Below, piece after piece: positions 10,141 through 35,818 of a DNA stretch of 64,000 bases. Source of the stretch: Candidatus Omnitrophota bacterium. GTDB taxonomy: Bacteria > Omnitrophota > Gorgyraeia > B26-G9. Position 1 is the stretch's first letter. Every line of letters begins with the position of its first letter. Where the stretch lies: positions 21,305-85,304 of the forward strand of contig JBDRJV010000022.1 of NCBI GenBank assembly GCA_043814605.1, written 5' to 3'. Below the pieces are notes generated by a model. It saw only the letters and a list, made by a program, of their open reading frames with translations. It was not told where the DNA came from and did not search any database. The position numbers and the translations under genes are program-made.

Positions 10141-10466
10141 GTTCTATCTCTCTCCGTAAAATGCCCACAAATGTAATTACTATTTTAATATACCTTAATC
10201 TTAGTTAGCAAGGAAGATTTTTAAATATTAGTTTATGTTCTTTTCTTAATTAAGTTAAAAAAAAGAACCTGATTTCAGCGATTTAAATAACAGATTACAT
10301 AGATTCACCTGGCTCATCGTCATACAGGCCGGCTAAAGCGAATAAAATTAATCAGTGTAATCTTTTTTAATCTGTGTAATCAGGAGCAATCTCAATCCTA
10401 ATCTCTATTATTACTTTTTATTTAATGCAAAATATTTATGAACACAAATAAAAATAATCCATTATT

Positions 10467-12164: not shown

Positions 12165-12188
12165 TTTTTTAAGTCTTTCGTCATAATT

Positions 12189-13838: not shown

Positions 13839-13867
13839 TTTTTTACTCCTTATTTAGTTTTTAAATT

Positions 13868-14293
13868 CTAATAGCCTTGCATTTTTATTTCAAATTCTTT
13901 ACCTTTATAAAACAAGACAATACCGTTTCTAGTAATTTCTCTTACCTCAAATTCCTCAATATACTCGCCTACGTTGATCACGCAGCCATTGAGGATTGCC
14001 TGAGGCCGGCCTTTTTTATAAACAATTCCCTGCAACTCAATCTTTGGCAAAATAATTTGCACATCTTTAGGGATAAGTTGTTTAGGGGGTAACTTAATTA
14101 ATCTTTCTAATTCTTGCGATAACATAAACGGATCTCTTTTTGCTTCGGCTCCTGTATATTTCACGATTCTTCCCTTAAGTAAACTAGAGGCCGGTTCTTT
14201 CTCGCTGGCATTTTCTGCAAAACACACCTTTCCGAAAAAAATCAAAACCGCCAGAAAAAAAATCGCTAAAAAATTTAATATTTTTTTAAACAT
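13868..14293 (-). CDS. PilP-like pilus assembly lipoprotein or periplasmic protein
   Basis: 141 aa, N-terminal signal or TM. Its position between pilO-like and pilQ fits PilP. I recognised no diagnostic motif. Confidence 0.4.
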   Translation of the reverse strand: MFKKILNFLAIFFLAVLIFFGKVCFAENASEKEPASSLLKGRIVKYTGAEAKRDPFMLSQELERLIKLPPKQLIPKDVQIILPKIELQGIVYKKGRPQAILNGCVINVGEYIEEFEVREITRNGIVLFYKGKEFEIKMQGY

Positions 14294-14832
14294 TATTGCT
14301 CCAAAATTGTGTCATTATAATCTAAAGTGCTCAAATTCAGATCCGCAATAACTTTAATTTCTTTCAACTCTTGTTTTTCAAAAACTATTGACTGTTTTAA
14401 ACTCATTTTATCTATCTGGATAAAAAGGTCAGAATTCTCCAAATCACTGATAAAAATACCCAATTGATGATAAGTAGTATTGATCGATAAAGTTACGCCT
14501 AATTTTGAATACTGATTTCTCTTTTCGGCCGGAAGCGCTGAAATTGAAATAATTTTCAGATTTAGTTTTCCCGCCATTTTTGCAATATGAGCTAAGAACC
14601 GTGAACTTCCCTCTACTTTTTGCATCTCTTCCCGCATTTCTTTTAAGTTCGCCAGTTTATCACCCACTTTATTTTCCAGCTTGATACGGTCAATCTCTTT
14701 TCTGTACCCTTTTAGCAGTTTTTGGCTTCTTTGAAAGAAAATTCTCCCGCCAAAAAAAAGCAGCAGACAAAAAATAAATATTCCCAACATTAAAACTTGC
14801 TGCATTTCTTTCGTTAATATTTTCTTTAACAT
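14293..14832 (-). CDS. PilO-like bitopic inner-membrane protein
   Basis: 179 aa, a single N-terminal TM followed by a coiled-coil region. It sits immediately after pilMN. Confidence 0.45.
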   Translation of the reverse strand: MLKKILTKEMQQVLMLGIFIFCLLLFFGGRIFFQRSQKLLKGYRKEIDRIKLENKVGDKLANLKEMREEMQKVEGSSRFLAHIAKMAGKLNLKIISISALPAEKRNQYSKLGVTLSINTTYHQLGIFISDLENSDLFIQIDKMSLKQSIVFEKQELKEIKVIADLNLSTLDYNDTILEQ

Positions 14833-14850
14833 TATAAAATTCCTCTAAAA

Positions 14851-16516
14851 CTATCGCGCTGAATCAATTTCGGAAGAAGCAATTAGATTAAAAGTCATTA
14901 CCGGAATCCCGTTAAAATCACCCTTATTGATTGACCCTGTTTTAATCATTTTAAATCCGTCAAAAAAATCTGTGCTGGCTTTTAATTTTTCAGAAAAATT
15001 ATTAACAACTTCAATCTCTAATCCTCTTTGTTCAGAATAAACAGTTCCATCGAGCTTTAATGTTGTTTCTTTTTTGACTAAACTTTTTTCTAATTTTAAA
15101 ATTTCTTCATAAGTTAAACTTGTTAACCAGGCATTCTCCGGAATTAAGTTGGGGACAGCACTTAATTTGATCGTTAAAAGATTACGGTCTTTTATTGTTT
15201 TTTTGATCATATTTGAAAGCGTAATAATTTCTTTCTCCCCTTGGATCAGCTGATTATCCGTAAAATGACTCAGATCCATAAATTTTGGGCTTTTCCTTTT
15301 TTCCAGTTCTAAAAGCTTCTTTTCGCGAGAAACAAAAAATGAAAAAATTAAATAAATCACAATATAACAAATTATTAATCCGATAGATCCAAAAATCACC
15401 ATTTTCGAAATAAAAACCTTAGTTTTTAAGCTTGTTTTTTTTCTCGCGCTAAATAAATCTATTTCCACAGTTGATTTGCTTTGGTTTCTTAATGCCGCAC
15501 CAATCGTCACGGCAAGCATAGGGAAAGTATAGGGCAGGGGCTTAACCGATTTAGGAATGGTAATATTCTTCAGCGGATCTATCGTATTTACCGGAATATC
15601 AAAACTTTTCTGAAGGTAAGCAGCCAGCGGACAGTTACAATCTGGAATTCCTTTAGCCACTTCCGCCACAATCTCCAAATCATCAAAATCTTCTAATTCT
15701 CCGCAAAGAATAATCTTATTTATTTCTTCTTTTCCCAATTCTTTCTTGTAATATTCCATGGAAATACGGCATTCGCTGAGCATATTTTCCAAGGTTATTT
15801 GACGCGAATCTGATGAACTGATACTTCCTTCCATTAAAAATTCAGCTGCTTCATCGTCGATCCATTCTTCTTTTTCTGCTAAAGAAAGATCACGCACAAA
15901 ATAAGGCACTCCGTTTTTAAGAATAATCAGGTTCATTCTCTGTGCATATATATAAATAACTGCATTTGATTTAAGTTTTTCAATTTCACCGGAATATTCT
16001 AAAAGCCGGAGCAAAGCAAAGGAAGCTGTTTCAACCGCAACAGGATATATCTTTGATTTATGTAAGGTAGTTAAATGATTTTTAATTGATTCTTCTTTGG
16101 TAACTAAAGAAAGGATTCCTAGCTTACGATTAACCTGGTCTTCTTTAAGAATATAAAACCCGGTTACTGCTTGTTCTAAGGGAAAGGGTATATATATATT
16201 TTCTGGCTTCAAAACGTACTGCTTCTTCGAGTTCTTCGGCACTAATCGGCGGCATTTGAAAATAGCGCAGTAATACCATCCCGGGCATCAGGATACTATT
16301 AACATTTTTTAAATCAGCTTTTGATTTTTTTACAGCTTTATCCAGCGCCGCTAAAATAAGCTCATCTTTATTTGCCCCTGCAGCTTGATTATCTTCAAAA
16401 ATGTCTACATGAATAAAATTAATCAGCTGTATTTTGCCGGCTACATTTTGTAATTGGGCAAGTTGTACAGTTTTAGGGCCAATATACAAGCCTATTGTAC
16501 TTTTAAATAAGAACAT
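14851..16516 (-). CDS. pilM: PilM-PilN fusion (actin-like ATPase plus bitopic PilN) interrupted by a frameshift in a (TA)5 tract
   Basis: ORF 16145..16516 encodes a PilM N-terminus. ORF 14851..16242 (GTG start) continues with the PilM consensus YIPFPLEQAV and a later PilN-like TM helix. The two frames overlap at the TATATATATA tract at 16189-16198. Removing two TA units or adding one restores ...ARKYIPFPLEQ... in a single frame. Confidence 0.6.
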
Positions 16517-23293: not shown

Positions 23294-23452
23294 AGCAAGT
23301 AGCAAGAGAAACTACGAGCTAGATTACAAATATTAAAGTTTAGATAAAAACATAGAATTTTAAAATTCTTCATTTTTATTTTTAATTTCCACTTGTACTC
23401 GCCACTTTATTTAAGTATCTATTTTTTCTTGCTACTCGCTACTTTATTTAGC
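23294..23452. repeat. Intergenic element with imperfect roughly 17-bp terminal inverted repeats (AGCAAGTAGCAAGAGAAA ... TTTCTTGCTACTCGCT) and an internal 20-bp direct repeat (TACTCGCCACTTTATTTAAG / TACTCGCTACTTTATTTAGC)
   Basis: Read directly from the sequence between uppS and the GH57 gene. The interior is AT-rich. Confidence 0.35.
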
Positions 23453-25028
23453 TATGGAACCTGTAATCAATGTCCGGAAATATATTATTTTTAAATTCAA
23501 TTTTACCCAGCCAAGCTTGATTTATATTGTTCCCCTTAATTTGATGGTATAATTTCGTAAAATTCAAGATATGCTCTTTGGTTCTTTCCACTGCATAAGA
23601 AACATGCGTACCCGTTTTTATAATAAACGCCCAGTCTGAACTTTGCGCGAGTAATAATTCTCGCAATGACTGATTTAGAGCATTTTTCCTTAATCCATCC
23701 GCTTCCGGATAAAGTTTGACCAATTCACACATCCGATCCGAAGCTTTATGCAAATGGCGGTAAATCCAATCATTCGAGCCTTCCAGCCAAAACTCAGAAT
23801 ACCCTTTCCATCCCCAGCTTGACATTGACGGAGTAATCACTTGATTTTTAGGATATTTTTCTAAATACTGTGAAGGCGTAATCATTTTAATTATGTTTTG
23901 GTCATAAGCAATTTTACGCATTAAAAAATTTATCCAATCCGGCCCTTCATACCACCAATGTCCGAATAATTCTGCATCGTAAGGAGAAATAATTATCGGA
24001 TTTCTTTTCGTAATACTTTGAATATATTCGACTTGCTTTTGCCGATTAAACATAAAATTTCCCGCATGAGAAGCTGCTGTATCCATAGCTGCCTCCGGAT
24101 TATAAGGCTGTTTATCGTCTGTTCTGCCGGTTATCCGATAATACTTTATCCCGGTATTTGTTCTAATCCCATCCGGATGGATATACGGTTTAATATAATC
24201 AAAATCCAAATCAAAACCAATATCCCGGTAAAATTCACGATAATTATAATCTCCGGGATAACCCTGTACTGCACTCCAAACCTGCTTTGAAGATTCCAGG
24301 TCACGGCCAAAACAAGCCACACCGCTTTTACAATAAACCGGGGCAAAAACCCCGTACTTAGGCCTGGGCGTACCGTGTAAAATCCCGTGTGTATCTGTAA
24401 AAAAATAACGCAGCCCATTTTCTTTTAAAATCTGATCATCGCCCGGATTATACCCGCATTCTGGCAGCCAGATTCCCTTCGGCTGCCGGCCAAAAACACG
24501 TTTATATTGATCCACTGCAGTTTTTACTTGCGCCCGGACCGAAGCCTTGCACACATCCATCAGCGGAAAAAATCCGTGTGTTGCCCCGCAAGTCATAATT
24601 TCTAACTTACCTGTATCCTGAATTCTTTTAAATGCTTGGACAATATTTTTTTTATTTTGCTCAACAAAACAATACCGTGCTAAATTAAAGTTACTTAAAT
24701 ACATTAAAGCCAGCCGATTAAATTCTGGCTGCCAACGTGTTCTTTCTACTTCTCTTGAGGCTAATTCTATTAATTTTTCAATATGACGCGTATAGCGGTC
24801 CTGCAACAATGGATCCATAAGCATTGAAATTAAAGTCGGTGAAAGTCCGATTGTAATCCGGAAATCAACATTATCTTTAATTAGCCGCTCAAAAATAGTC
24901 AATAACGGAATATATGTTTCTGTAATTGCTTCATATAACCAATCTTCTTCTAAAAAATTCTCATGCTCTGGGTGCCGCACAAAGGGTAAATGACCGTGTA
25001 AAACAAAACAAAGATATCCTTTTTCCAT
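23448..25028 (-). CDS. Glycoside hydrolase family 57 protein, 1,4-alpha-glucan branching-enzyme-like
   Basis: The N-terminus GYLCFVLHGHLPFVRHPE is the GH57 signature. 526 aa. Confidence 0.8.
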   Translation of the reverse strand: MEKGYLCFVLHGHLPFVRHPEHENFLEEDWLYEAITETYIPLLTIFERLIKDNVDFRITIGLSPTLISMLMDPLLQDRYTRHIEKLIELASREVERTRWQPEFNRLALMYLSNFNLARYCFVEQNKKNIVQAFKRIQDTGKLEIMTCGATHGFFPLMDVCKASVRAQVKTAVDQYKRVFGRQPKGIWLPECGYNPGDDQILKENGLRYFFTDTHGILHGTPRPKYGVFAPVYCKSGVACFGRDLESSKQVWSAVQGYPGDYNYREFYRDIGFDLDFDYIKPYIHPDGIRTNTGIKYYRITGRTDDKQPYNPEAAMDTAASHAGNFMFNRQKQVEYIQSITKRNPIIISPYDAELFGHWWYEGPDWINFLMRKIAYDQNIIKMITPSQYLEKYPKNQVITPSMSSWGWKGYSEFWLEGSNDWIYRHLHKASDRMCELVKLYPEADGLRKNALNQSLRELLLAQSSDWAFIIKTGTHVSYAVERTKEHILNFTKLYHQIKGNNINQAWLGKIEFKNNIFPDIDYRFHS

Positions 25029-25174
25029 ATTTAGAAATTCTCCATTACGTAAATACCAATAAAAACATTAGTTAGGAACAATAAAAGATAATTTCATTAT
25101 AAAAATAATGTAGATATTTTAACACGCCCTTATTTATAATTCAAGTTATTTCCTGCTGTTCTTTTTTGAAATTC

Positions 25175-25207
25175 ACAAAAAAACCGGAATATAATTTTAT
25201 ATATTCC
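25175..25207 (-). terminator. Rho-independent terminator ending the parA-CBM48 operon
   Basis: Perfect 10-bp stem CCGGAATATA / TATATTCCGG with a 4-nt loop. On the transcribed (minus) strand it is immediately followed by a U7-8 tract. It lies about 65 nt 3' of the 25274 stop codon. Confidence 0.65.
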
Positions 25208-25273
25208 GGCACAGAATCATTTTTTTAAATCCCGCTAAATTTAGATTATCCCCAACCTAAATTTAGTTTTAAA

Positions 25274-26704
25274 TTAATTCGTTTTTTTCTTAACAACTGG
25301 GGTAATTTCTCTTGTATCTACACCATCTTCAGAAACTGCTTTAACCGGAATTACTTGCTGGCCATCCGGCAAAGCAAACCTTAAACTAAAAGTTCCATCT
25401 TTATTTAAAGCAATCGGGTTTCCTTGTACAGTTACTTTTGCGTCTGGTTCTGTTGCTCCATAAACAATCAATTCTGTATTAACTTTAAGCCAAAATTTAC
25501 GTTTTTGCGCTTTTTTCCCGGCTCCGGGCGAAGATAATATTCCGGAAGAAATATCGCTCATTCTTTGAATAATCTGTCTTCTGATATCCGCAGAACTAAG
25601 CCCAATTCCCAGGCCTGCGGATAATCCGTAAAGCTTATTAAAATCCTCCTCTACAATCATCCATTCCTCATCCGTAACCCAGCTAGAGCCATCAATCGGA
25701 GTTGAGACACAATTAGAACGGGCTAATAAAACAAACCTGCCGTCTTTTAAACAAAACCCAATATCTACACAAAAACTGCGTCCGGGATTTGCGGTATTTA
25801 TATACCAGTTATTGGCAAAATTATTAATATCAATATCCCAAAAATTGTTTGCATTCGAACCGCTAAAATTCACACTGGTAATATCATAAACTCTTAATAT
25901 GCGCCGGGCATCTTCCAAAGCCCCGTTAAATTCCTGATAAACAGTATTCAGTTTTGCCTGTGTAATTTCCCAATAAGCGTGCAGCCAATAAGGATCTCTG
26001 ACCTGAATAATAATGCGGTTATCCCCGTAGCCTAAGGGTAATTCTGCAAACTCTTTTTCCCCCACTACATTTTCTACCGGCACAGGGCTGACAAAAAATT
26101 TGCTTTCTTCAATAATCTGCTCTTGTGCTAAATTCTGCATTAAAGCTGGTTCTTTTTTATTTTTGCTAGTAAACAAATATTTTAGTTCACTGATCGGCCC
26201 TAAACGGGTTGATTTATCTTTTTCTTTTGTTTGCCTGTTCTGATTTTTTTTAACCAGCTTAATTTTGGAATTTTCTGCTGTTTGGATGTTTTTTGTTTTT
26301 TTTGCTTCTGTTTTTTTTGAATTTGCCATCTTCATCACCTCTGTTTTCCGGGCAGCTTGACGGGAAATAATTTTTTGCCAGGTACTCGCTTTATCCGTAT
26401 TTTTTCTTACTGTTTTTTTAGGCTGAGAAACAGTTTTTTTTCTCTCAATTTTTTTTATCTTAACCCTAGGCTCTGATTTTATCTTTTGTATCGTTACTTT
26501 TTTTAGCTTAGGTTTTTCCCGTTTTCTTTCTGTTTTAACTGCTTTTTTCGCTGCTTTACCTTTAACCGCGCTTTGAGTTTGAAAAGATGGCTTTACTGTA
26601 TTTTTAACTTTTAAATTTTTCTCTTTGAATTTGGATTTAATTATCTTTTTCTGATCAGCTATTTTTTTCGTCTTACTATTTATAACTGCTTTTTTTTTAA
26701 TCAT
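25274..26704 (-). CDS. Lysine-rich protein with a conserved C-terminal domain that resembles DUF4912
   Basis: The first roughly 190 aa are low-complexity K-rich (KKxxK repeats). The C-terminus contains LPLGYGDNRIIIQVRDPYWLHAYWEI, which I recall as the core of DUF4912. That is recall, not a search result. Confidence 0.45.
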   Translation of the reverse strand: MIKKKAVINSKTKKIADQKKIIKSKFKEKNLKVKNTVKPSFQTQSAVKGKAAKKAVKTERKREKPKLKKVTIQKIKSEPRVKIKKIERKKTVSQPKKTVRKNTDKASTWQKIISRQAARKTEVMKMANSKKTEAKKTKNIQTAENSKIKLVKKNQNRQTKEKDKSTRLGPISELKYLFTSKNKKEPALMQNLAQEQIIEESKFFVSPVPVENVVGEKEFAELPLGYGDNRIIIQVRDPYWLHAYWEITQAKLNTVYQEFNGALEDARRILRVYDITSVNFSGSNANNFWDIDINNFANNWYINTANPGRSFCVDIGFCLKDGRFVLLARSNCVSTPIDGSSWVTDEEWMIVEEDFNKLYGLSAGLGIGLSSADIRRQIIQRMSDISSGILSSPGAGKKAQKRKFWLKVNTELIVYGATEPDAKVTVQGNPIALNKDGTFSLRFALPDGQQVIPVKAVSEDGVDTREITPVVKKKTN

Positions 26705-26815
26705 TTTAATTCTTTTTTTTCCTAAAAATTAGATAAATTTTGCATTATAAATACTCTGTTGTAGAATTTAAAAGTACTACATAAATACATAAATGTCAAG
26801 AAGATAATTAGTTGA

Positions 26816-27667
26816 TCATGCCTCGGCCTGGTCCGGGGGCCGGCAAATCAAACTCAGCATCCTTTTATCCGTATTTTCCCGTCGGTAAGAGTAAAAAATG
26901 CCGGAATTGCATTTAGTGCACAACTTTAAATCGAAAATATTTTTTTCTCTGACGCCAAATGTTTTCATTTGTACTGTATTCGCCTGAATTAAATCAAGAT
27001 ATATTCTCCGGGTTTTTTTATTTTCTCTAATAAAATCCGGGAATATTTTTTTAAATTCAAAACCGACCTCATAACAGCAATCCCTGATTCCCGGGCCAAA
27101 ACATGTCTTGATCTGAGCCGGATCAGACTGGAATTGTTTCTGCATTTTTTCCAACAAGTTACGTACAATTGCCTGTTTTGTCCCCCGCCATCCGGCATGA
27201 GCAATGCCAATAGCTTTTTTCCCGGGATCCCAGAAGATTATCGGTAGGCAATCTGCTGTTAATAAACACAATGCCCTGCCTTTATTTTGCGTAATCGCCC
27301 CATCTGCTCCGGATATACTTTCGGCAAAACTTACAATTCCTGCATTCTGTTTAGAGCTGTTAATTTTAGCCACTTTATTTTTATGCACTTGCTCTAAGAA
27401 AACTGCTTTTTTAAAATCAATCCCTAAATCTGTAAACATTCTTTGCCGTGCACTGATTATTCTTGTGCGCGCGGTTTTATTTTCACCCGCCCTCAAATCA
27501 TAATTAAAATTCTTTAAACTAAACGCGATAATAATTCTTTCTGATTGCTTTTGCTCAAATTGGGGGGAAAATATTAGATAATTCTTTGTAAATTTTATAT
27601 TTTTAAAAACTGGCAATAATATTTTTTTGCGCATGATTTTCTTAAATTTGAATAAAAATAAAGGCAA
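26816..27667 (-). CDS. pgeF: YfiH/PgeF family protein (laccase-domain / purine nucleoside phosphorylase, DUF152)
   Basis: Contains the conserved HAGWRG motif (IAHAGWRGT) and the Cys/His residues of the Cu-oxidase_4 fold. Confidence 0.8.
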   Translation of the reverse strand: MPLFLFKFKKIMRKKILLPVFKNIKFTKNYLIFSPQFEQKQSERIIIAFSLKNFNYDLRAGENKTARTRIISARQRMFTDLGIDFKKAVFLEQVHKNKVAKINSSKQNAGIVSFAESISGADGAITQNKGRALCLLTADCLPIIFWDPGKKAIGIAHAGWRGTKQAIVRNLLEKMQKQFQSDPAQIKTCFGPGIRDCCYEVGFEFKKIFPDFIRENKKTRRIYLDLIQANTVQMKTFGVREKNIFDLKLCTKCNSGIFYSYRRENTDKRMLSLICRPPDQAEA

Positions 27668-27680
27668 GGGCTTACCGATA

Positions 27681-28415
27681 TCAATCTGCTATTTTTTCTA
27701 ATTTATGAGTTTTATTAAAATCCATAAACTCCGCTATTTCCTCAGGTGTTAGATTTATATCATCTAAACTCAGTGCTTCTTTTTTCTGTATATTTTCGCT
27801 GCTGGTTCTTTTTTGCAAAACCGGAGAGACTATGGCTGGTTTAAATTTTTTTGTTATTTTTTTCTCAGCCGGAATCTCGCCCGGGCTGGATAAGGTTTCG
27901 TCTTGTTCTATTTCTATTGTTTTGTGCAATGTTACTGCGGATAATTGTCCCTGCTGTTTATTATCAAATATTTTCTCAAAAATTACTCCTTCAATATCCT
28001 GGTTAACTACATATTTTACTTCAATAAGTTTAATATCATTCAGCTCTAACTGTTTTGCTGCCGATTGAATTTTTTTTGAAAAACAATCACATACCAAAAT
28101 AATTTCTGCGGCACGGTTAAAATCAATATTTTCATTAAAAAACAATCTTTTAATCAAAGTTTCATTGTCTTTTAACCATTGCAACTGGCTTAAAGTGCCC
28201 TCTAAAATTCCCTCATTTGCACTCTCAATATCAAAGTTAACCACCACCAGCCGGCCGGTATCATCAATGCCTAAAAAATCCATGAATCCGTTTTCCTGCG
28301 TACCCAATTCCAAATCAATAAAACTTAAGCCCGGGCTTAAAGCCTCCGGATTTTTTAGAATAATTTCTTTTAATTTTTTTCTCGGGATTTTTTGTTTTTG
28401 AAATACTCTCTCCAT
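27681..28415 (-). CDS. Hypothetical protein. The N-terminal segment has a weak resemblance to the DUF91/NucS-type PD-(D/E)XK fold, and the C-terminus is acidic or charged.
   Basis: GFMDFLGIDDTGRLVVVNFDIE resembles the G.iDll..D.dG.lvviE.K core but lacks the E.K. The similarity is weak. This is the third gene of the operon. Confidence 0.3.
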   Translation of the reverse strand: MERVFQKQKIPRKKLKEIILKNPEALSPGLSFIDLELGTQENGFMDFLGIDDTGRLVVVNFDIESANEGILEGTLSQLQWLKDNETLIKRLFFNENIDFNRAAEIILVCDCFSKKIQSAAKQLELNDIKLIEVKYVVNQDIEGVIFEKIFDNKQQGQLSAVTLHKTIEIEQDETLSSPGEIPAEKKITKKFKPAIVSPVLQKRTSSENIQKKEALSLDDINLTPEEIAEFMDFNKTHKLEKIAD

Positions 28416-28448
28416 TTTTTTATTTCCTCAAATTACTTTTTTCTTAAA

Positions 28449-29375
28449 TCACCTTAACCCGCTAAACTCATCAACAATACGCTTAAAAAACATTTTTCCG
28501 GCAGCCGGATTTGTTTCTTCCAGATTTAAGCGCAGCACAATTATTTGGGCAATATTCGATATACAGGCAGTAAGATCCGCATCATAAAAAGAAGCGATAT
28601 TTGTATTCGAATCAATTTCCTGTTTAATCTTAAACATAAACCCGTATTTATACAATTCTTTGTCTAAAAATTTCCTTACCGCACCGGCAAGTTTATTATA
28701 AATTTTATCAATTTCATACATATGGTCAATATCGGCAATAATTGCCCCGACTTTAGCCAGCGGATTATGGGCAAAAATAATTTTCATTACTTTATAGGCA
28801 TTAATCATATTATTGCTTTCGGGGTTTACTAATACCAAAAACTCGCGGATTAAATCCTTAAATACCGGGGATATTTTTAATAAATTTTGCTGCATCACGC
28901 TGATTAAAATCAGGTCTGAATTTTCTTCAATATCCTTTAATTTTAGCATTAGTTCCTGTTCTTTTTCTTCGCTGGCTAAAAAGCTTAAACTTTTTTGGTT
29001 TAACCCGATTATTTTTACGCCTAACGGACCGTCTTTAATTAACATCTGGGGGTTACTGATTTCTGTATTTTGCACATCCCGGCCTAAGAAAAATTTCAGG
29101 CAAGGCAAATCTTCATCCATATCCACAACGGTAATCCGCATTCCTAAGCGGGCCAGAGCTAAGGAAAGATTAATCACGAGAAAAGCATCTCTAAAATCAG
29201 TGCTGTTTCCGATTAAACCCACACTTTTTGTCGGAACTTTTACTGGATAAGCCGCGGTTTCTTTTTGAGCATCACTTTTGGTAGGATCTAAAACTTGATT
29301 TTCATCCTGTGAAAGGAATAAATAAGAAATATCTTCTAATCCTTTTCCCAATTTTTTTAACTTATTCATCTGCAT
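28449..29375 (-). CDS. ParA/MinD/FlhG-fold protein with a degenerate Walker A, a likely non-catalytic partner ATPase
   Basis: ...VGLIGNSTDFRDAFLVINLSLALARLGMRITVVDMD aligns to the MinD/ParA P-loop region, but KGG(V/C)GKT(T/S) is replaced by NSTDFRDA. A Walker-B-like DLILISV follows. The N-terminal roughly 50 aa are an extension. Confidence 0.5.
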   Translation of the reverse strand: MQMNKLKKLGKGLEDISYLFLSQDENQVLDPTKSDAQKETAAYPVKVPTKSVGLIGNSTDFRDAFLVINLSLALARLGMRITVVDMDEDLPCLKFFLGRDVQNTEISNPQMLIKDGPLGVKIIGLNQKSLSFLASEEKEQELMLKLKDIEENSDLILISVMQQNLLKISPVFKDLIREFLVLVNPESNNMINAYKVMKIIFAHNPLAKVGAIIADIDHMYEIDKIYNKLAGAVRKFLDKELYKYGFMFKIKQEIDSNTNIASFYDADLTACISNIAQIIVLRLNLEETNPAAGKMFFKRIVDEFSGLR

Positions 29376-29401
29376 ATGCGTCTAGCACAATCTTTTCTCC
29401 C

Positions 29402-30553
29402 CTATTCGATTTCAACTAAAGAATTCTCATTTCCCACCGGATCAGAAACTCTTTTTGGATTATTAGGATCAACAATCCATTTCCCATCTACAATAAACTT
29501 ATACTGATATTTCCCCGGGTTTAATTTATAGACCCGAGACCATACCCCTTTTTCCTCATTCTCTAATTTACTCTGGTTCTGCGCTACCCAATTATTAAAA
29601 TCACCGGCAATTTCTACGCTTTTTGCCTCAGGCGCATAAACAAAAAATTTTGTTTCTTTTTCTAATTTTTTCTCAGGTATTATTTTATCTATATCCTGCT
29701 TTTGTTGTATTTGCGGTTCTTGTGCTCTGGCTTTATCCAGAACGCGTTTAATGAAAATATCGTCTTGTTTATTTTTCGCTGTATTTTTTATTGAAGAAAC
29801 TTCCCGGGCTAGCTGTATATAATCTTCGGCGCCATTACTGCGCTGATCATAACTGGTTATGGGAACGCCGTGGCTGGAAGCTTCTCTGAGGCGGATATTA
29901 TTACGAATGATTGTGTTAAATACATTACCTGAAAAATATTTAAATATTTGTTCTTTAATCTCCTGCGCAAATCGGGTGCGGCGGTTAAACATTGTCAATA
30001 AGGCTTTAACTTTTATTTTACAATCTAATCGGGAATTAATCAGATTGATTGTTTCCATAAGTTTACTGATCCCATGTAAAGAAAAGAATCCTGTTTCCAC
30101 CGGGGCAATAACTTCATTTGACGCACGCAGCGCATTAAAGGTCAGCAGTCCCAAGCTCGGTGAGCAGTCAATTATCACAAAATCATATGTCTTTGTTCCG
30201 ACCATTAATGATATTGCCTGATGCAATTTTGCTTCTCTTGCGGGTTTGCCGGAAAGCTCCTGTTCTATTGCGCAAAGCCTGATATTTGCCGGAGCTAAAT
30301 CTAGTTTTTCGGTAATACGCGTTATTACTTGATCTAAGCGCATCCGGCTTTGCTCATTATCTGTCAAAACATTATACATTGATTTTTCCAAATTTTCTGG
30401 ATTAACATTCAGGCCTAAAGTTGCATGCGCCTGCGCATCCATATCAATAAGCAAGACATTCTGGTTTAGATCCGCTAAACTTGCTGCGAGATTAATTGCT
30501 GTTGTAGTTTTACCGCATCCGCCTTTTTGATTCGCAATAGCAATTATCTGCAT
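29402..30553 (-). CDS. ParA/MinD-family ATPase fused to a C-terminal CBM48 / AMPK-beta-type glycogen-binding domain
   Basis: Deviant Walker A at residues 9-17 (QKGGCGKTT), A' and B motifs, and a ParA fold through about aa 260. The C-terminus FFVYAPEAKSVEIAGDFNNWV...GKYQYKFIVDGKWIVDPNNP...NSLVEIE matches the AMPK beta GBD (GSFNNW...HQYKFFVDGQWTHDP). Confidence 0.8.
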   Translation of the reverse strand: MQIIAIANQKGGCGKTTTAINLAASLADLNQNVLLIDMDAQAHATLGLNVNPENLEKSMYNVLTDNEQSRMRLDQVITRITEKLDLAPANIRLCAIEQELSGKPAREAKLHQAISLMVGTKTYDFVIIDCSPSLGLLTFNALRASNEVIAPVETGFFSLHGISKLMETINLINSRLDCKIKVKALLTMFNRRTRFAQEIKEQIFKYFSGNVFNTIIRNNIRLREASSHGVPITSYDQRSNGAEDYIQLAREVSSIKNTAKNKQDDIFIKRVLDKARAQEPQIQQKQDIDKIIPEKKLEKETKFFVYAPEAKSVEIAGDFNNWVAQNQSKLENEEKGVWSRVYKLNPGKYQYKFIVDGKWIVDPNNPKRVSDPVGNENSLVEIE

Positions 30554-30617: not shown

Positions 30618-30673
30618 AAAAAAAACCACTGGTTTATTCATTACCCTATACTTTTTAACGAATAAACCAGTGG
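30618..30673 (-). terminator. Rho-independent terminator downstream of the major pilin gene
   Basis: Perfect 14-bp inverted repeat CCACTGGTTTATTC / GAATAAACCAGTGG. On the minus-strand RNA it is followed by a U8-9 run. It lies 55 nt 3' of the pilin stop. Confidence 0.65.
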
Positions 30674-30728: not shown

Positions 30729-31130
30729 TTAGTTCCATTCTTGAGGGCCTGCACCAGCTGCATTATCATACGTACCATCCTGATCCATTGTTACCATTTG
30801 ACCGCTATAAGGACCAGCGATTCGTGATGCTGTAGTAACAACTGTTGAAGGAGTTGCAACACTTGCATATGTCCAATCCCCATCATCACCGTCTAGATAA
30901 TCATCAGGCAAATCAACATCAGTTAAATCAGCATAAGCAGCAGTAAACTGATCTTGAAGCGCTCTATACTGTATTTGCGCATTTGTAATCGCGCGTAACC
31001 CTGCTTTTGCTTTCCCGCCTTTTGTTCTTTCAATTGATCTAAAATAACTTGGTACAGCTATTGTTACCAATATACCGATAATGATAACAACCATTAAAAG
31101 TTCCACAAGTGTAAAACCTTTTCTCTTCAT
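30729..31130 (-). CDS. pilA: Type IV pilin, candidate major pilin
   Basis: MKRKGFTLVELLMVVIIIGILVTIAVPSY is a class III signal with G/F cleavage and Glu+5. It has its own strong promoter and terminator. Confidence 0.8.
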   Translation of the reverse strand: MKRKGFTLVELLMVVIIIGILVTIAVPSYFRSIERTKGGKAKAGLRAITNAQIQYRALQDQFTAAYADLTDVDLPDDYLDGDDGDWTYASVATPSTVVTTASRIAGPYSGQMVTMDQDGTYDNAAGAGPQEWN

Positions 31131-31873: not shown

Positions 31874-31908
31874 AACCCAATTCTGACCGCGGGGGTCAGA
31901 GTTGGGTT
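31874..31908. repeat. REP-like palindromic element, copy 1 (AACCCAATTCTGACC-GCGGG-GGTCAGAGTTGGGTT)
   Basis: 15-bp arms with a 5-nt loop. It abuts the stop codon of the 1303-aa gene. A near-identical copy lies at 36049-36083. Confidence 0.6.
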
Positions 31909-34900
31909 AAATTGACATTTCTGGATTTATATTGTGCATGTAAAAAATATCTTTTATTTGCTCTAAGGCAATCATGGCAACCTTGGAATCTTCAACAACT
32001 TTTTTTTGCCTTGCCTTGTTTTTAATAATTCGCTCAAGTGAATCAATAAAACTACATGCACTTTCCTGCTCATAATCCTTTAGCTTGCTAAGATCAATTA
32101 TTTTAATGCATTTTAATAACTGCCTTAAGTATTTATTCTTTAAAAATTTTAACTTATAAAGAAGCTTATCAGAATCATAGTAACCAGAGCTGATTGATAT
32201 CCGAATTAGCTCAGCCGCATCAAATCTCTTTTTATTGCTGGGTGATTGTAAAGCCTCTACCACCTGACCTTCAATTTGCGGCATAATTTTCGGTACCATT
32301 GCCGGCATAACTAATTTTGAAAACATTTTTACCGCTAAAGAACTGGTAAAATTAAAATCTTTCACTCTATCTTCACCTGTATATACTGTTACAATCCCAG
32401 AATATTTATCTTCTATGCCAAATAAAAATACAGCAATCCGGTTTTTTTTATTATCTCCAGTGCCGGTTTTCCCAAATATATTAATATGTTCGGCTAAAAC
32501 AGAATTTTTAATTTTTGCCCTTTGCGCTGATCCTTGCAAAACAACTTGTTTCAAAACTTTTATACCAACCTCTGCTATTTCTTTAGATAACACTTGCTCT
32601 GATTTTAAGAGCATTTTATTTAGAAAACTGGCAAAAGGGGTTTCTCTGGCTAACTGGATTTCTCCAACTTCCTGAGTATCTTTTTTAACCCCTTTATTTA
32701 TCAAAATACTAATTAAATCCACCAGTGCTCCGGGCGTATCCCCCGAAGGCCCCAGCGCCACGCTCAAGGTAGGGATAACTTTAAACGGATATCCTAGTTT
32801 TTGCCAAAAAGGCGTGATCTTCTGGTAAAAAATACTTTTTTCTAAATCTGTATAAATCCTCCGATACATTTCATGTGAAGCCGCAGGACTTAATAACCAT
32901 TCCGCTGTACTATTAATAATCATTTTTGTCTGTTTTGAATCAGGTTGATACCCTGATTTTATTTGCTGTTTTAGCCATTTACTTTGTTTTTTAGCTAATC
33001 TTTTAAAAAAATCCTGATATGTTTTATTTTTCATTTGCGCAATAGTCTTTTTAATATTTCCTTTATTTTGTTTTGCTTGTCTAATAAACTTTATAATCTC
33101 CTCAGCTATGTGCTTCTTTTCTGTCTGAAGTACCTCCGTAGCATACTCCTGCCAAACCGGATTATTATGATTCTTACATATCTCATCCGCTGCATACCCA
33201 AATGTTTGCTCAACATAATACTCAAATATTTGTTCTGCTAAACGCACAAAAACTAAATTAATGGATAGAATTAATGCTTTGTCCACGCTCACAGCCTCTA
33301 AGTTATGTGCCGGATGATAGTTATTTATTTGCTGCCAGCCGCCGGCTGTAAAAAATTTACCCGGCATTGCAGAAACTTTATATTTTAAAGCTTTTTCTAA
33401 TATATCCTTTAAACTCAGATCAGGATTCACATATAACTGTGCAATCACCCACTGGCTTATCGGATTACTTTTTTGTGCAAGTGCCATTTCTAATTCCACT
33501 GAGCTTTGGGCAAAAGATTTATGAAAATTATAGACATCTGCAACAATAGTTAAAAATTGTAAAAAAATACGCAGTTTAGCAGTTGAACCCAATTCCGTCT
33601 TACTATCTAAAACATAGTCAAACTGCTGATCATCAAATGTATCAATATGTGCGACTACTTTATTTGCAGATGAAGCATCTCCACCTTTTTCTACTACATA
33701 ACAGCTATAGCGCAACTGAGAAATGTCATTATTCCTTAAATTAATCAGTTTCCTGCCGGCAAAGGAATACTTTTGCAAAAAATACGGATCATACATTTGT
33801 ACAAAATTTTCATACAGCTTCTGTTGCAATAAATGATCATTAGAAGCTCGCAACCTTATATCCATCCTATTTAATGTATTAAGATTAATTAAATCCTCTG
33901 GAGTTGATTCTCTTAAAAGCTTTACCATCCAATTACGCATGGACAAAGCCGCCCGATTTTTACCGTAAGGCACTCCGTTAAATAAAACTTTTTTCTGCGG
34001 ATTCCAATAATCATAAGTTTCTTGTGCAGTTTTTGATTCTTGTTCGCTAATAAATTCCATCCTCTGGATTTTTTTTAAAAGCAGGTTTGCTTCCTCATTA
34101 CCCCCATTATTTCTTAATATGCTTGGATTTCTAATTGCACCCATCAAGGCCGCAATTCGTTTTAGAGCCTTAGTCCGTAACTGCGGATCTTTTAACTGCG
34201 TATTTAGTTCCGTCAGACTGATTCCGTAAAAAGCGTACAAAGCCTCACCAAAACCAATAACTTCCCCCAGATAACCGTTTGGCCCACCGGCAAATGGTAC
34301 CCAGTTTAAATAATTCAATAATATATTTTGCGCAGCGAGTTGCGGATTATCATTGCTAAAAAGTAATGAGGCATGTATAAGCTGCTTAATTTTTTCTTCA
34401 AAATCTTTTGTTTTACCATTTTCTGAATGTAGTATTTTAGCTAACTGAATCGCAATTGTACTTGCTCCGTGCACTCTCCCATAATAATCATGTGAAATAT
34501 TACTATAGATAATTGAGTATATCGCGTTTACTAAACGCCGCTCCTCAATTATATAATTTCCTTTTCCTAGAAATACTCTCAATTCCGGAAAAAGCAGTTG
34601 TAATAACTTTGTATTTTCCCAAGCTAGGAGCATTTTTATGATCAAAGGGTCAACATCTGAAAATTTTTCAATTCGATAAGGATCATTATATTCATAAATA
34701 ATTCTTTCTTGAGGATCAATAATTAAAAAATTATTTCCCTGATCCCAAACTGGCGGCATAATTGAGCGTTTTTTTATTAGATCAATTAATAACCGGGATT
34801 GAGCTGTTTTCGCTTTAAAGTCAAATCCCTGTTTATTAATCAAAAAAGAAATTAAATCAGGCAACAAAATATAACCTTTTGTTTTAGAGTACAAACCTGT

Positions 34901-35818
34901 TTTGGGATAAACCATTTTAATGCCTGATAAATTTTTACCTTCATCTTTAAACACTGTTTGCCAATAAATACATGCACGCATAAGGTTAAAATATTGTTTA
35001 TACAAAACCGCATAATAAAGTTCAAAAAACAATATTGCTTTAAATGACAGAAAAAGCCCGGCAATAAGTAACCATTTTTTTCTTCTATCCGTGGGAAATT
35101 GTATTTTTTTAATTAAAAGTAAATGCGGGGTTAAAATCGCAGCAACTAATAAGCTATTAAAAATTAAGGAACCAAAGCAGTAACAATAACTTATGGTAAA
35201 AACAGCCGGAATTAATATCACCCCGGATAAAAAACTAACTAAAATTTTATCTAAACCAAACGCATCTTCTAATACAGTTTCGCGGAAAATCTTATTCTTA
35301 CCAACTCCCCAAACATGAGACATATGCCAGAAAACCTGAAAAGTGATAAATGATTGAGCAAACCATCTGAAACTATCTTGAGTAATATCAAAAGGCAGAC
35401 CGGTTTTTTGATACATAACAAAGGCCATACCACAGATCATTAAAAACGGGTAATAATAAATTTCAAAAAACTTTTTAATAAAATCTCTGTGATTTTTCCA
35501 AAACAGCTTGAAATATTTTTTTAAACCATCTGTAAAATTAAAGGGGAAATTTTTTTCTTTACCTTTAATCTTTTCTTGTTGTTCTTTAAAATTCAATAAT
35601 GTTCTTTTTATCTTGCCTTGCTGCCGCATTGTTTGGTTAAACGATCCGGCAAATAAGTCTATAAAGTTATTCTGGGAAATTTGCACTTGCGGGGATAAAC
35701 AATCATGACGATTCTTGCTAAAACCAGACAAATCTCCTGCGGCAAAAACAAGGTTTGTCCATAATAATAGCTCTATTAATATGAAAACAATAATATTTAA
35801 TTTTAACTTATTTTTCAT
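31907..35818 (-). CDS. Highly divergent class A penicillin-binding-protein-like protein (GT51 transglycosylase-like plus transpeptidase-like motifs) with extra N-terminal TM segments and large insertions
   Basis: Signal or TM plus about 5 additional TM helices. HGASTIAIQLAK matches GT51 motif 2. KIKQLIHASLLF...ILLNYLNWVPFAGG matches motifs 3/4. ELGSTAKL is an SxxK motif, LSIN is an SxN motif, and FGKTGTGDNKKNRIAVFLFG matches the KTG(T) motif plus the D..WFVG region. These are my motif-level calls, not a search. Confidence 0.5.
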   Translation of the reverse strand: MKNKLKLNIIVFILIELLLWTNLVFAAGDLSGFSKNRHDCLSPQVQISQNNFIDLFAGSFNQTMRQQGKIKRTLLNFKEQQEKIKGKEKNFPFNFTDGLKKYFKLFWKNHRDFIKKFFEIYYYPFLMICGMAFVMYQKTGLPFDITQDSFRWFAQSFITFQVFWHMSHVWGVGKNKIFRETVLEDAFGLDKILVSFLSGVILIPAVFTISYCYCFGSLIFNSLLVAAILTPHLLLIKKIQFPTDRRKKWLLIAGLFLSFKAILFFELYYAVLYKQYFNLMRACIYWQTVFKDEGKNLSGIKMVYPKTGLYSKTKGYILLPDLISFLINKQGFDFKAKTAQSRLLIDLIKKRSIMPPVWDQGNNFLIIDPQERIIYEYNDPYRIEKFSDVDPLIIKMLLAWENTKLLQLLFPELRVFLGKGNYIIEERRLVNAIYSIIYSNISHDYYGRVHGASTIAIQLAKILHSENGKTKDFEEKIKQLIHASLLFSNDNPQLAAQNILLNYLNWVPFAGGPNGYLGEVIGFGEALYAFYGISLTELNTQLKDPQLRTKALKRIAALMGAIRNPSILRNNGGNEEANLLLKKIQRMEFISEQESKTAQETYDYWNPQKKVLFNGVPYGKNRAALSMRNWMVKLLRESTPEDLINLNTLNRMDIRLRASNDHLLQQKLYENFVQMYDPYFLQKYSFAGRKLINLRNNDISQLRYSCYVVEKGGDASSANKVVAHIDTFDDQQFDYVLDSKTELGSTAKLRIFLQFLTIVADVYNFHKSFAQSSVELEMALAQKSNPISQWVIAQLYVNPDLSLKDILEKALKYKVSAMPGKFFTAGGWQQINNYHPAHNLEAVSVDKALILSINLVFVRLAEQIFEYYVEQTFGYAADEICKNHNNPVWQEYATEVLQTEKKHIAEEIIKFIRQAKQNKGNIKKTIAQMKNKTYQDFFKRLAKKQSKWLKQQIKSGYQPDSKQTKMIINSTAEWLLSPAASHEMYRRIYTDLEKSIFYQKITPFWQKLGYPFKVIPTLSVALGPSGDTPGALVDLISILINKGVKKDTQEVGEIQLARETPFASFLNKMLLKSEQVLSKEIAEVGIKVLKQVVLQGSAQRAKIKNSVLAEHINIFGKTGTGDNKKNRIAVFLFGIEDKYSGIVTVYTGEDRVKDFNFTSSLAVKMFSKLVMPAMVPKIMPQIEGQVVEALQSPSNKKRFDAAELIRISISSGYYDSDKLLYKLKFLKNKYLRQLLKCIKIIDLSKLKDYEQESACSFIDSLERIIKNKARQKKVVEDSKVAMIALEQIKDIFYMHNINPEMSI

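Follow-up and report, generated by a model that had tools for sequence, protein, structure and literature searches.

A ParA-type ATPase fused to a CBM48 glycogen-binding domain: a candidate system for coupling glycogen to the nucleoid

Organization of the locus

The 64,000-nucleotide (nt) stretch of Candidatus Omnitrophota contig JBDRJV010000022.1 analyzed here (the window) encodes a ParA-type ATPase that ends in a CBM48, a glycogen-binding domain of the AMPK-beta type. The ParA-CBM48 gene (30553..29402; 383 amino acids (aa); AAA_31 plus AMPK1_CBM/CBM_48) is directly followed by open reading frame (ORF) 2 (29375..28449), a ParA-fold paralog with a destroyed P-loop, and then by ORF3 (28415..27681), a NucS-fold protein; PgeF/YfiH (27667..26816; Cu-oxidase_4); a DUF4912 protein (26704..25274); and, beyond a terminator-like hairpin, a GH57 gene of the branching-enzyme type (25028..23448; Glyco_hydro_57 plus BE_C). 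These five ORFs and the GH57 gene form a tight string on the minus strand, at the coordinates given in an initial annotation of this DNA. The central idea of that annotation, an ATPase carrying its own alpha-glucan-binding module within a dedicated glycogen-linked system, stands up to all three refuting conditions that the annotation set, and its interpretation as a whole is partly supported here. The five-gene operon it proposed holds as a unit for its first three genes, ParA-CBM48, the peptide-bearing partner ORF2 and the NucS-fold ORF3, which form the conserved core; PgeF and the DUF4912 protein are lineage-specific neighbors.

The hairpin (25210..25183, minus strand; 11-bp stem plus T-run) lies between the DUF4912 and GH57 genes and closes the string that begins with ParA-CBM48, in agreement with the intrinsic terminator called initially, and a promoter-like site (25144..25116, minus strand) precedes the GH57 gene. 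Directly upstream of the operon is a pilin-like gene with an N_methyl motif (31130..30729, minus strand), followed by a second hairpin and T-run (30673..30626, minus strand; 18-nt arms, 94% complementary, 12-nt loop) that is its probable terminator. ParA-CBM48 therefore probably heads its own transcription unit. A pilin-like gene occupies the same position in L001, one of the comparison loci, in which ORFs are simple ORF calls.

Both halves of the fusion protein are constrained

The ATPase domain (residues 1-255; 29789..30553, minus strand) is Soj-like. It matches the Pfam profiles AAA_31 (E-value (E) 7e-53, residues 1-181) and CbiA (E 6e-19), and its closest solved structures are Myxococcus xanthus ParA (8ray, E 8e-54), HpSoj and TtSoj, while the scores of the NCBIfam minD models fall far below their cut-offs. 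A weaker match is to CBP_BcsQ (E 1.3e-11); BcsQ is a ParA/MinD ATPase of a glucan-synthesis machine. The Walker A motif NQKGGCGKT, D37/D39 and the Walker B residue D129 are invariant in 119-120 of 120 homologs, these being the best 120 clusters (43-62% identity) from a database of 5.8 billion proteins, and the invariant catalytic motifs predict an active Soj-like ATPase. Residues were mapped onto Soj sequences taken from annotated records. R192 aligns with Soj R189 and is kept in all 120 homologs, R221 aligns with Soj R218 and M. xanthus R238 and is K/R in 113 of 120, and R194 and R223 provide extra basic residues beside them. The DNA-binding roles that we give to the Soj residues are in part presumed, beyond what PMC12462528 and PMC11229316 state. 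From this conserved basic patch, non-specific DNA binding by ParA-CBM48 is predicted; in M. xanthus ParA, the substitution R238E abolishes DNA binding (PMC12462528). The pocket that receives the ParB peptide in M. xanthus ParA (L150/G151/L152/L192; PMC12462528) aligns with L134/G135/L136/L176 and is kept as well, with hydrophobic residues at L134 and L136 in 119-120 of 120 homologs and Gly at 135 in 119.

The C-terminal domain (residues 298-383; 29405..29662, minus strand) scores well above threshold for AMPK1_CBM (E 9e-17; 61.5 bits against a cut-off of 26.8; residues 304-383) and CBM_48 (E 4e-11; 43.5 bits against 22.4), which bears out the initial reading of the gene as a ParA ATPase with a C-terminal CBM48. 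W322, K352, W359, G374 and N377 are conserved. Among them, W322, K352, W359 and N377 align with W100, K126, W133 and N150 of AMPK beta1, its sugar-contact residues as reported by Polekhina et al. (2005), and 119 of the 120 homologs have each of W322, K/R352, W359 and N/D377. Constraint thus extends over both halves of the protein, the catalytic motifs, DNA-binding arginines, peptide pocket and sugar contacts being retained in ~95-100% of the 120 homologs. The CBM48 is genuine and under constraint, and glycogen binding is predicted from it. Outside the ParA fusions, this CBM subtype has its nearest relatives on alpha-glucan enzymes of families GH57 and GH13, which supports alpha-glucan specificity.

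A CBM48-like domain could alternatively work without binding glycogen, as a protein-interaction or dimerization module or as a receptor for another glycan of the envelope or capsule, in which case the ATPase would have some other cargo. Many fusion loci lack glycogen genes and instead have envelope-polysaccharide genes (epimerases, sugar transferases, pilus genes), and the AMPK CBM makes protein contacts too. We consider this explanation improbable, however, as the exact AMPK sugar-contact residues recur in at least 119 of 120 homologs, and the same subtype is found on GH57 and GH13 amylolytic enzymes and also stand-alone beside DUF4912-GH57 genes.

The linker between the two domains (residues 256-297; 29663..29788, minus strand) is variable, gappy and rich in E, K, A and P. 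Its median length is 21 aa among the 120 homologs (range 7-104), and it reaches ~200 aa in Planctomycetota.

The comparison loci also hold CBM48 modules on other proteins. In L045 (7176-11066, plus strand; Planctomycetia metagenome-assembled genome (MAG) CAYTGV010000026), the same subtype is inserted in a full-length SMC protein (SMC_N residues 3-1272, hinge 526-629), where it lies right after the hinge (642-728), has the full sugar-binding signature and includes a 'QSKLE' segment that resembles the ParA CBM. This protein is apparently a second DNA-organizing ATPase with a glycogen-binding module, an independent parallel. A Verrucomicrobiae MAG (L048:8744-10630, plus strand) encodes a Ser/Thr protein kinase whose chain also holds a PKD domain and a pair of CBM48 modules, an AMPK-like logic within a single polypeptide, and a Sumerlaeota MAG (L073:9497-10531, plus strand) encodes a thioredoxin-like protein with two CBM48 modules.

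The fusion is widespread and distinct from Soj

All of the best 120 clusters share the ParA plus CBM48 architecture, and a scan of species-representative genomes with the C-terminal 200 residues alone, together with contig look-ups, recovered 48 further distinct loci besides the window (49 in all). The fusion is therefore no product of chance or of assembly. Judging from record titles, its carriers include Omnitrophota, Auribacter, many orders of Planctomycetota, Thermodesulfobacteriota, Deltaproteobacteria/Myxococcota, Gemmatimonadales, Rokuibacteriota, Eisenbacteria, Acidobacteriota and Spirochaetaceae, and one protein cluster is named Schekmanbacteria. The gene module of ParA-CBM48 and its presumed activator is conserved in at least 11 mostly uncultured bacterial phyla.

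In a neighbor-joining tree of 34 fusion ATPase domains, with six canonical Soj/ParA sequences as the only outgroups, the fusions split from Soj/ParA in 100 of 100 bootstraps, and the module broadly tracks phylum-level taxonomy. Myxococcota are known to have canonical ParAB; their fusions have a median identity of 44-46% to other fusions versus 38% to M. xanthus ParA, and group with the fusions. At the Walker A motif, all 34 fusions have Cys (KGGCGKT) where Soj has Val (KGGVGKT). Within the 64-kb window, there is no second ParA and no ParB-like protein with a GERR box, parS matches are no better than chance, and no centromere-like repeat arrays surround the operon. The separate clade and the absence of parB and parS from the window rule out an ordinary housekeeping Soj with an adjacent parB, which the initial annotation had named as a finding that would refute it. 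A plasmid partition ParA is rejected as well, since none of the best 5,000 plasmid matches covers the CBM part.

ORF2 carries a peptide with a ParB-like motif

The lineages inspected first all have an ORF2 homolog as the next gene after the fusion. The most conserved part of this family is an N-terminal peptide, (K/R)(K/R)LG(K/R)GL(E/D)(D/E)(I/V)SHLFLS, followed by an acidic disordered linker. In the window, the peptide is KLKKLGKGLEDISYLFLS (residues 5-22; 29310..29363, minus strand), a ParB-like LG(K/R)GL core with K11 at its center and then an amphipathic helix. In ~24 distinct loci from various phyla, a regular expression for the core matches the first gene downstream of the fusion, and it has 2 other matches among ~7,000 ORFs; more divergent versions include MPRDLSEVLHYF in Myxococcota. 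The body behind the peptide varies: it is MinD-like and ~300 aa long in most lineages, an unrelated 186 aa in L006 and 477-666 aa in Phycisphaerae. In two loci (L019:9844-10371, Gemmatimonadales; L021:10542-11243, Rokuibacteriota), the peptide is fused directly to the NucS-fold domain of ORF3, which is an apparent Rosetta-stone-type link between the two proteins.

All four annotated ParB/Spo0J proteins that we compared likewise begin with a basic run and LG(K/R)G(L/I): MAKGLGRGINVFF, MAKGLGKGINALF, ..RSALGRGLDALI and ..NRGLGKGIGALF. Residues 1-10 of HpParB (MAKNKVLGRG) contact HpParA via L7/R9 (PMC11229316), and in M. xanthus, 20 residues of ParB around a central R/K are enough to activate ParA (PMC12462528). 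An N-terminal peptide for the ATPase, with the remainder for the cargo, is the general pattern of ParA/MinD partners (bioRxiv 10.1101/2022.06.09.495121). Because a constant peptide precedes a variable body, and because the peptide resembles the N-terminus of ParB, ORF2 looks like a ParB-type activator peptide placed on another body, and we propose that this peptide may activate the ParA-CBM48 ATPase. A literature search for the peptide core 'LGRGL' found nothing. Of the two partner candidates put forward initially, the pseudo-ATPase ORF2 is thus retained, with an invariant ParB-like peptide that the annotation did not mention, and the Lys-rich DUF4912 protein, which travels with GH57, is dropped.

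The ORF2 body (residues 47-308; 28452..29237, minus strand) has only sub-threshold CbiA/MinD matches by sequence. Where ParA has KGGCGKTT, it has NSTDFRDA, part of the degenerate P-loop GNSTDFRDA (nt 29184-29210); its INLSLALARLG..VVDMD pairs with INLAASLADLN..LIDMD of ParA. Since an hhalign comparison of ORF2 with ParA covered 28 columns, the fold was settled by structure prediction. The AlphaFold2 (AF2) model has a predicted local distance difference test score (pLDDT) of 85-95 over residues 47-308, and residues 1-46 are disordered except for a helix at 14-20. In Foldseek, its best match is FlhG (4rz2; E 1.3e-14, TM-score 0.72), followed by MinD and FleN. Together with the alignment, this MinD/FlhG/FleN fold confirms ORF2 as a ParA-fold paralog with a destroyed P-loop. 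The loss is a family trend: among the top 150 representatives from an ORF2-profile search, 44 carry the peptide, and 35 of these 44 lack a Walker A motif (GxxxxGK[ST]), whereas a minority keep one (e.g., GKGVRGKT in L002). Word-index searches for ORF2 and ORF3 reached close Omnitrophota relatives only, and distant members were taken from the neighbors of fusion loci.

Some fusion loci have other gene arrangements. A second Omnitrophota clade (L027:7221-11316 and L033:7121-10967, with L028, L034 and L039 similar) has neither ORF2 nor ORF3; the order is a GH57 gene without BE_C, a 186-193-aa protein, ParA-CBM48, a DUF4870-like membrane protein of ~108 aa and a protein of ~135 aa. The last combines a histone-H1-like Lys-rich tail with a small beta-barrel and might be the ParA partner in this clade. 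In Pirellulales and related lineages (L040:11893-13179, with equivalents in L042, L043, L063 and L068), a conserved 400-447-aa protein with no Pfam match sits 0.5-1.2 kb downstream of an orphan ParA-CBM48 on the same strand, and its N-termini in L042 and L043 resemble signal peptides by eye. Divergent P-II-like proteins lie just upstream of the fusion in the related loci L008 (9275-9613, minus strand) and L012 (8737-9075, minus strand), and PilZ and BFN-domain proteins precede it in L013 (8441-8812, plus strand); neither arrangement is conserved elsewhere. PilZ was considered as a conserved partner and rejected: it accounts for 5 of 142 neighboring ORFs, and among ten candidate ORFs scanned, it is found only in L013 and L014.

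ORF3 has a NucS fold without the catalytic pair

The N-terminal domain of ORF3 (residues 8-154; 27954..28394, minus strand) adopts a NucS/EndoMS-type PD-(D/E)XK fold. The NucS_C match is weak by sequence, but a profile of the family aligns with NucS (2vld) over the C-terminal nuclease domain at E 2e-5, and the AF2 model of residues 8-154 (pLDDT 70-88) retrieves EndoMS/NucS (5gke/2vld) in Foldseek at E 1.3e-5 and probability 1.0, so that the faint PD-(D/E)XK/NucS likeness suspected initially is upheld by both profile and fold. This is the single folded domain of ORF3, the NucS N-terminal domain being absent. At the position of the NucS 'vlElK' motif, the window protein reads N-F-D, with N61/D63 in place of E-x-K, and the position is variable across the family. 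An active nuclease is unlikely, because the catalytic E-x-K is not conserved. Behind a variable, low-confidence linker, the C-terminus carries LTPEEIAEFMDF (residues 222-233; 27717..27752, minus strand), an instance of an L(T/S)xEEIxEF(MDF) motif that is kept across phyla and looks like a docking peptide. ORF3 homologs follow ORF2 in many lineages and are missing from many loci.

An ATPase, a pseudo-ATPase and a PD-(D/E)XK nuclease fold could together make up an anti-phage defense or mobile-element module, and ORF3 has weak matches to the PADLOC candidate families PDC-S11 and PDC-S18 (E 1e-6 to 1e-5). We disfavor this explanation and regard it as very improbable: the E-x-K pair is absent and not conserved, the module proteins match no known defense family in PADLOC and have no PHROG matches, and the module broadly tracks phylum-level taxonomy and is not in the best 5,000 plasmid records. 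The setting is that of a housekeeping chromosome, with neighboring isoprenoid and lipid genes conserved in L001.

Another alternative is a role in nucleoid or chromosome organization in which glycogen is an anchor or signal rather than the cargo. Here, the peptide and the NucS-fold protein, acting as a DNA-binding protein, would substitute for ParB in segregating or positioning DNA. The CBM48 would fix the ATPase to (polar) glycogen or signal the state of the carbon store to the machinery of segregation or division, like the AMPK beta CBM. Such a role would account for a Soj-like ATPase whose partner, encoded where parB would be, bears a ParB-like peptide, for a protein with the fold of a DNA enzyme that is fused to the peptide in L019 and L021, for the existence of SMC-CBM48 and Ser/Thr-kinase-CBM48 proteins, and for the many loci, the majority, without glycogen genes. 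It would not explain why the operon lacks a nearby parS or repeat array, why the fusions form a separate clade in lineages that also have canonical ParAB (e.g., Myxococcota), or why linkage is with GH57 rather than with ori-proximal genes. Many loci, moreover, have no ORF3, and the body of the partner differs widely between loci, unlike a centromere-binding protein. On balance, we judge a chromosomal role to be unlikely.

Linkage to GH57 and other neighboring genes

The window GH57 protein matches Glyco_hydro_57 (E 1.3e-42) and BE_C (E 1.4e-40), as expected for the branching enzyme named initially. It scores 343 bits against 1000 for the NCBIfam equivalog, and because the equivalog cut-offs are not reached, its branching activity is inferred from architecture. 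A GH57 gene lies no more than 8 kb from the fusion in 8 of the 49 loci (~705 kb in total), the window and 7 of the 48 others. The five arrangements involve two GH57 subfamilies. It follows PgeF and DUF4912 in the window and L001, comes directly after ORF3 in L003, lies 8 kb upstream with a Rho_N-DUF4912 protein in L002, is convergent with DUF4912 and a stand-alone CBM48 in L015 and, as the other subfamily without BE_C, is immediately upstream in L027, L033 and L039. Bacterial genomes have few GH57 genes, so the number of such linkages expected by chance is, by estimate, well under one. The enrichment of GH57 near the fusion is real but partial. In a Pfam census of 400 neighboring ORFs, GH57/BE_C, DUF4912 and phosphoglucomutase recur, and GlgA, GlgC and GlgP are not found. 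The initially proposed link between the fusion and glycogen genes therefore stands for these eight loci and does not extend to all, the Planctomycetota loci having no glycogen genes.

The DUF4912 protein of the window comprises a Lys-rich tail (residues 1-225; 25% Lys, isoelectric point (pI) 10.5), the DUF4912 domain (226-345; E 3e-36) and a Glucodextran_B-like beta-sandwich (414-470; E 1.4e-7), which agrees with its initial description as a Lys-rich, DUF4912-like protein. It was rejected as the ParA partner, being absent from most fusion loci and accompanying GH57 even without ParA (in L066, and at 8 kb in L002). The tails compared were those of the window (26030-26704, minus strand), L001 (13601-14647), L015 (8249-9343, minus strand), L066 (11449-12774) and L002 (1-503): all DUF4912 proteins adjoining GH57 have a Lys-rich N-terminal tail (20-28% Lys, pI 9.6-11.1) or, in L002, a Rho_N domain. 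These tails suggest that the protein, an associate of glycogen enzymes, binds nucleic acid or a polyanion through its N-terminus. Titles and abstracts in the literature yielded no description of DUF4912 function. Stand-alone CBM48 proteins of ~100 aa adjoin pairs of DUF4912 and GH57 branching-enzyme genes in L015 (6340-6642, minus strand) and L066 (9947-10240, plus strand). As L066 has CBM48, DUF4912 and GH57 without any ParA, the three form a recurrent trio of their own.

PgeF was correctly named (TIGR00726, 165.7 bits against a cut-off of 141.15; Cu-oxidase_4, E 5e-59) and is ruled out as part of the system, since it is confined to the Omnitrophota clade of the window itself (the window and L001), and is best seen as a lineage-specific passenger. 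The listed start of this ORF is a TTG at 27667, which makes it ~34 aa longer than the L001 homolog (window 27634-27667, minus strand), and its Pfam match starts at residue 54; the true start is probably an ATG at residue 12 or later, downstream of the TTG.

The wider surroundings are ordinary chromosome, with FtsH, a type IV pilus/type II secretion system (T2SS) cluster, ProRS, RseP-Dxr-CdsA-UppS, ManC and NadE, as well as IspG, which was assigned by synteny with L001. The pilus/T2SS cluster (8905-16242, minus strand) includes T2SSF, T2SSE with an MshEN domain, a secretin and a PilM-like protein. Two long proteins lie on the minus strand, one of 1303 aa (31907-35818) with a weak transglycosylase match alone and one of 1360 aa (58938-63020) with a beta-helix/NosD match. 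ORFs 49591-50646, 50633-52564 and 53283-55019 are among several neighboring 350-640-aa ORFs with no Pfam match.

A proposed mechanism

We propose, with a probability of roughly one half, that the locus encodes an ATP-driven tether or positioning system of the ParA/MinD family that is dedicated to particles of alpha-glucan (glycogen): the ATPase would link them physically to the nucleoid, and the partner peptide would reset it. We infer this function from sequence, predicted structure and synteny. ATP would bring ParA-CBM48 into a sandwich dimer that binds chromosomal DNA non-specifically through R192 and R221, aided by R194 and R223. The dimer would also pair two flexibly tethered CBM48 modules, so that glycogen could be held by avidity on the nucleoid or spread over it. 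The ORF2 peptide would then enter the conserved pocket and trigger hydrolysis; the dimer would dissociate, let go of DNA and lose its bivalent hold on glycogen, after which a new cycle would begin. Through repeated binding and release, granules could become distributed over the length of the nucleoid and be reliably inherited, in the manner of the ParABS/McdAB diffusion-ratchet, or the system could instead serve as a regulated tether. The ORF2 body and ORF3 would make up the rest of the partner module and probably set the place of the activator, on the granule or on DNA. In a further-reaching reading, glycogen granules in at least 11 phyla may be no passive inclusions but actively tethered to, and partitioned along, the nucleoid by a dedicated ParA machine with its cargo receptor in cis, a claim that we hold tentatively and at somewhat less than even odds.

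Several observations weigh against this proposal. Classical ParA systems have the activator, and not the ATPase, on the cargo. Here, the presumed cargo is bound by the ATPase itself, so that the system need not work as a ratchet and could equally well be a static or regulated tether. The ParB likeness of the ORF2 peptide stays at the level of a motif, because a profile of the peptide scores ~0 bits, which is not significant, on the four real ParBs; searched against PDB sequences, the profile retrieved no ParB. About half of the loci, mainly in Planctomycetota, lack a recognizable partner, and 16% of loci have a nearby glycogen gene, none of these being in Planctomycetota. The nuclease fold of ORF3 fits a DNA-centered function better than a granule-centered one. 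Lastly, all fusion-bearing organisms are MAGs.

The same components could also be arranged as an ATP switch on the glycogen surface that follows the logic of MinD and has no nucleoid role, the CBM48 taking the place of the C-terminal membrane-targeting helix of MinD. ATP-driven dimerization would give bivalent binding of high avidity to the glycogen particle, and the dimer would recruit or regulate glycogen enzymes (GH57, the DUF4912 protein) or control granule size and number, and the ORF2 peptide would release ParA-CBM48 from the surface as MinE releases MinD. Consistent with such a switch, the targeting module is C-terminal and on a flexible linker, GH57 and DUF4912 adjoin, the partner body has a MinD/FlhG fold, and the weaker match to CBP_BcsQ (E 1.3e-11) is to the ATPase of a glucan-synthesis machine. 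Yet the Soj DNA-binding arginines (120/120 and 113/120), together with R194 and R223, would be unnecessary without DNA binding, the ATPase is nearest to chromosomal ParA and not to MinD, and the SMC-CBM48 parallel points to a link between DNA and glycogen. We therefore consider a surface switch rather unlikely and retain coupling of glycogen to the nucleoid as the preferred interpretation.

Comparison with known systems

Chromosomal ParABS is the nearest relative by sequence. The ATPase is ~38-47% identical to Soj/ParA, with the DNA-binding arginines and ParB-peptide pocket kept, and the partner gene lies immediately downstream and encodes an N-terminus that resembles ParB at motif level, with a basic run and LG(K/R)GL. 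Unlike ParABS, the fusions have KGGCGKT, a clade of their own, a C-terminal CBM48 and no parS, and the partner lacks the ParB/Srx CTPase (no GERR box) and helix-turn-helix, being a MinD-like pseudo-ATPase with or without a NucS-fold protein. The system resembles McdAB, PomXYZ and ParC/ParP in that a ParA-family ATPase would use the nucleoid as a matrix for a non-DNA body, and in its partner with a presumed N-terminal activating peptide and genes beside cargo genes (bioRxiv 10.1101/2022.06.09.495121). It differs from them in that the presumed cargo is a polysaccharide granule and not a protein assembly, with the cargo module in cis on the ATPase; McdA itself is a distant match (6non/6noo, E ~7e-7, N-terminal 174 residues), and the partner is unrelated to McdB.

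As in MinD/MinE, a C-terminal appendage would set the surface, dimerization would double valency and a partner peptide would trigger release. However, a CBM48 stands in place of the amphipathic membrane-targeting helix, the Soj-like ATPase keeps its DNA-binding residues, and MinC and MinE are not among the annotated window genes. For ORF2, the best structural match to FlhG (4rz2) extends to architecture, which in FlhG also consists of a short N-terminal activator peptide, a flexible linker and a MinD-fold body; in contrast to FlhG/FleN, its P-loop is mostly destroyed, its peptide is ParB-like and presumably meant for ParA rather than FlhF, and there is no flagellar context. The CBM48 belongs to the same Pfam family as that of AMPK beta (AMPK1_CBM) and has the same sugar-contact residues. 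In AMPK beta and plant PTST-type proteins, a non-catalytic CBM48 brings another protein to glycogen or starch, whereas here it is fused to a P-loop partition ATPase. ORF3 shares with NucS/EndoMS the fold and local sequence of the C-terminal PD-(D/E)XK domain but not the NucS N-terminal domain or E-x-K, and it has its own C-terminal EEIxEF motif.

Implications

ParA/MinD ATPases are a general bacterial solution for placing large objects in the cell. Published cargos include chromosomes, plasmids, the divisome, microcompartments, flagella, chemoreceptor arrays and conjugation machines, and the word 'glycogen' is absent from the text of a cross-species survey of such cargos (bioRxiv 10.1101/2022.06.09.495121). 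Our full-text literature searches found no description of a ParA-CBM48 fusion or of such a system, in line with the initial remark that no described ParA-based system for glycogen granules was known to its author. Positioning by ParA/MinD is itself well established, and what would be new here is the presumed cargo, the cis architecture and the type of partner. To our knowledge, the positioning and inheritance of storage polysaccharide in bacteria are essentially uncharted. In E. coli, one report links the allocation of glycogen between daughter cells to replicative lifespan (PMC4836754). The locus described here would be the first plausible machine for positioning or inheriting glycogen granules in bacteria.

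If this is true, a carbohydrate granule would join the list of ParA cargos, as the first to be something other than DNA or a protein assembly. The system would also be new in its design, with cargo binding built into the ATPase, and in its type of partner, a dead MinD fold that bears a ParB-like peptide. Taken with SMC-CBM48 and the Lys-rich or Rho_N tails of the DUF4912/GH57 companions, it would point to a general, unrecognized coupling between the chromosome and the carbon store. The 85-residue CBM, the 20-residue peptide and point mutants predicted from conserved residues offer testable reagents, and the module would give a first functional handle on hundreds of proteins annotated as 'AAA family ATPase' or 'hypothetical protein' in Omnitrophota, Planctomycetota, Myxococcota and other poorly studied phyla.

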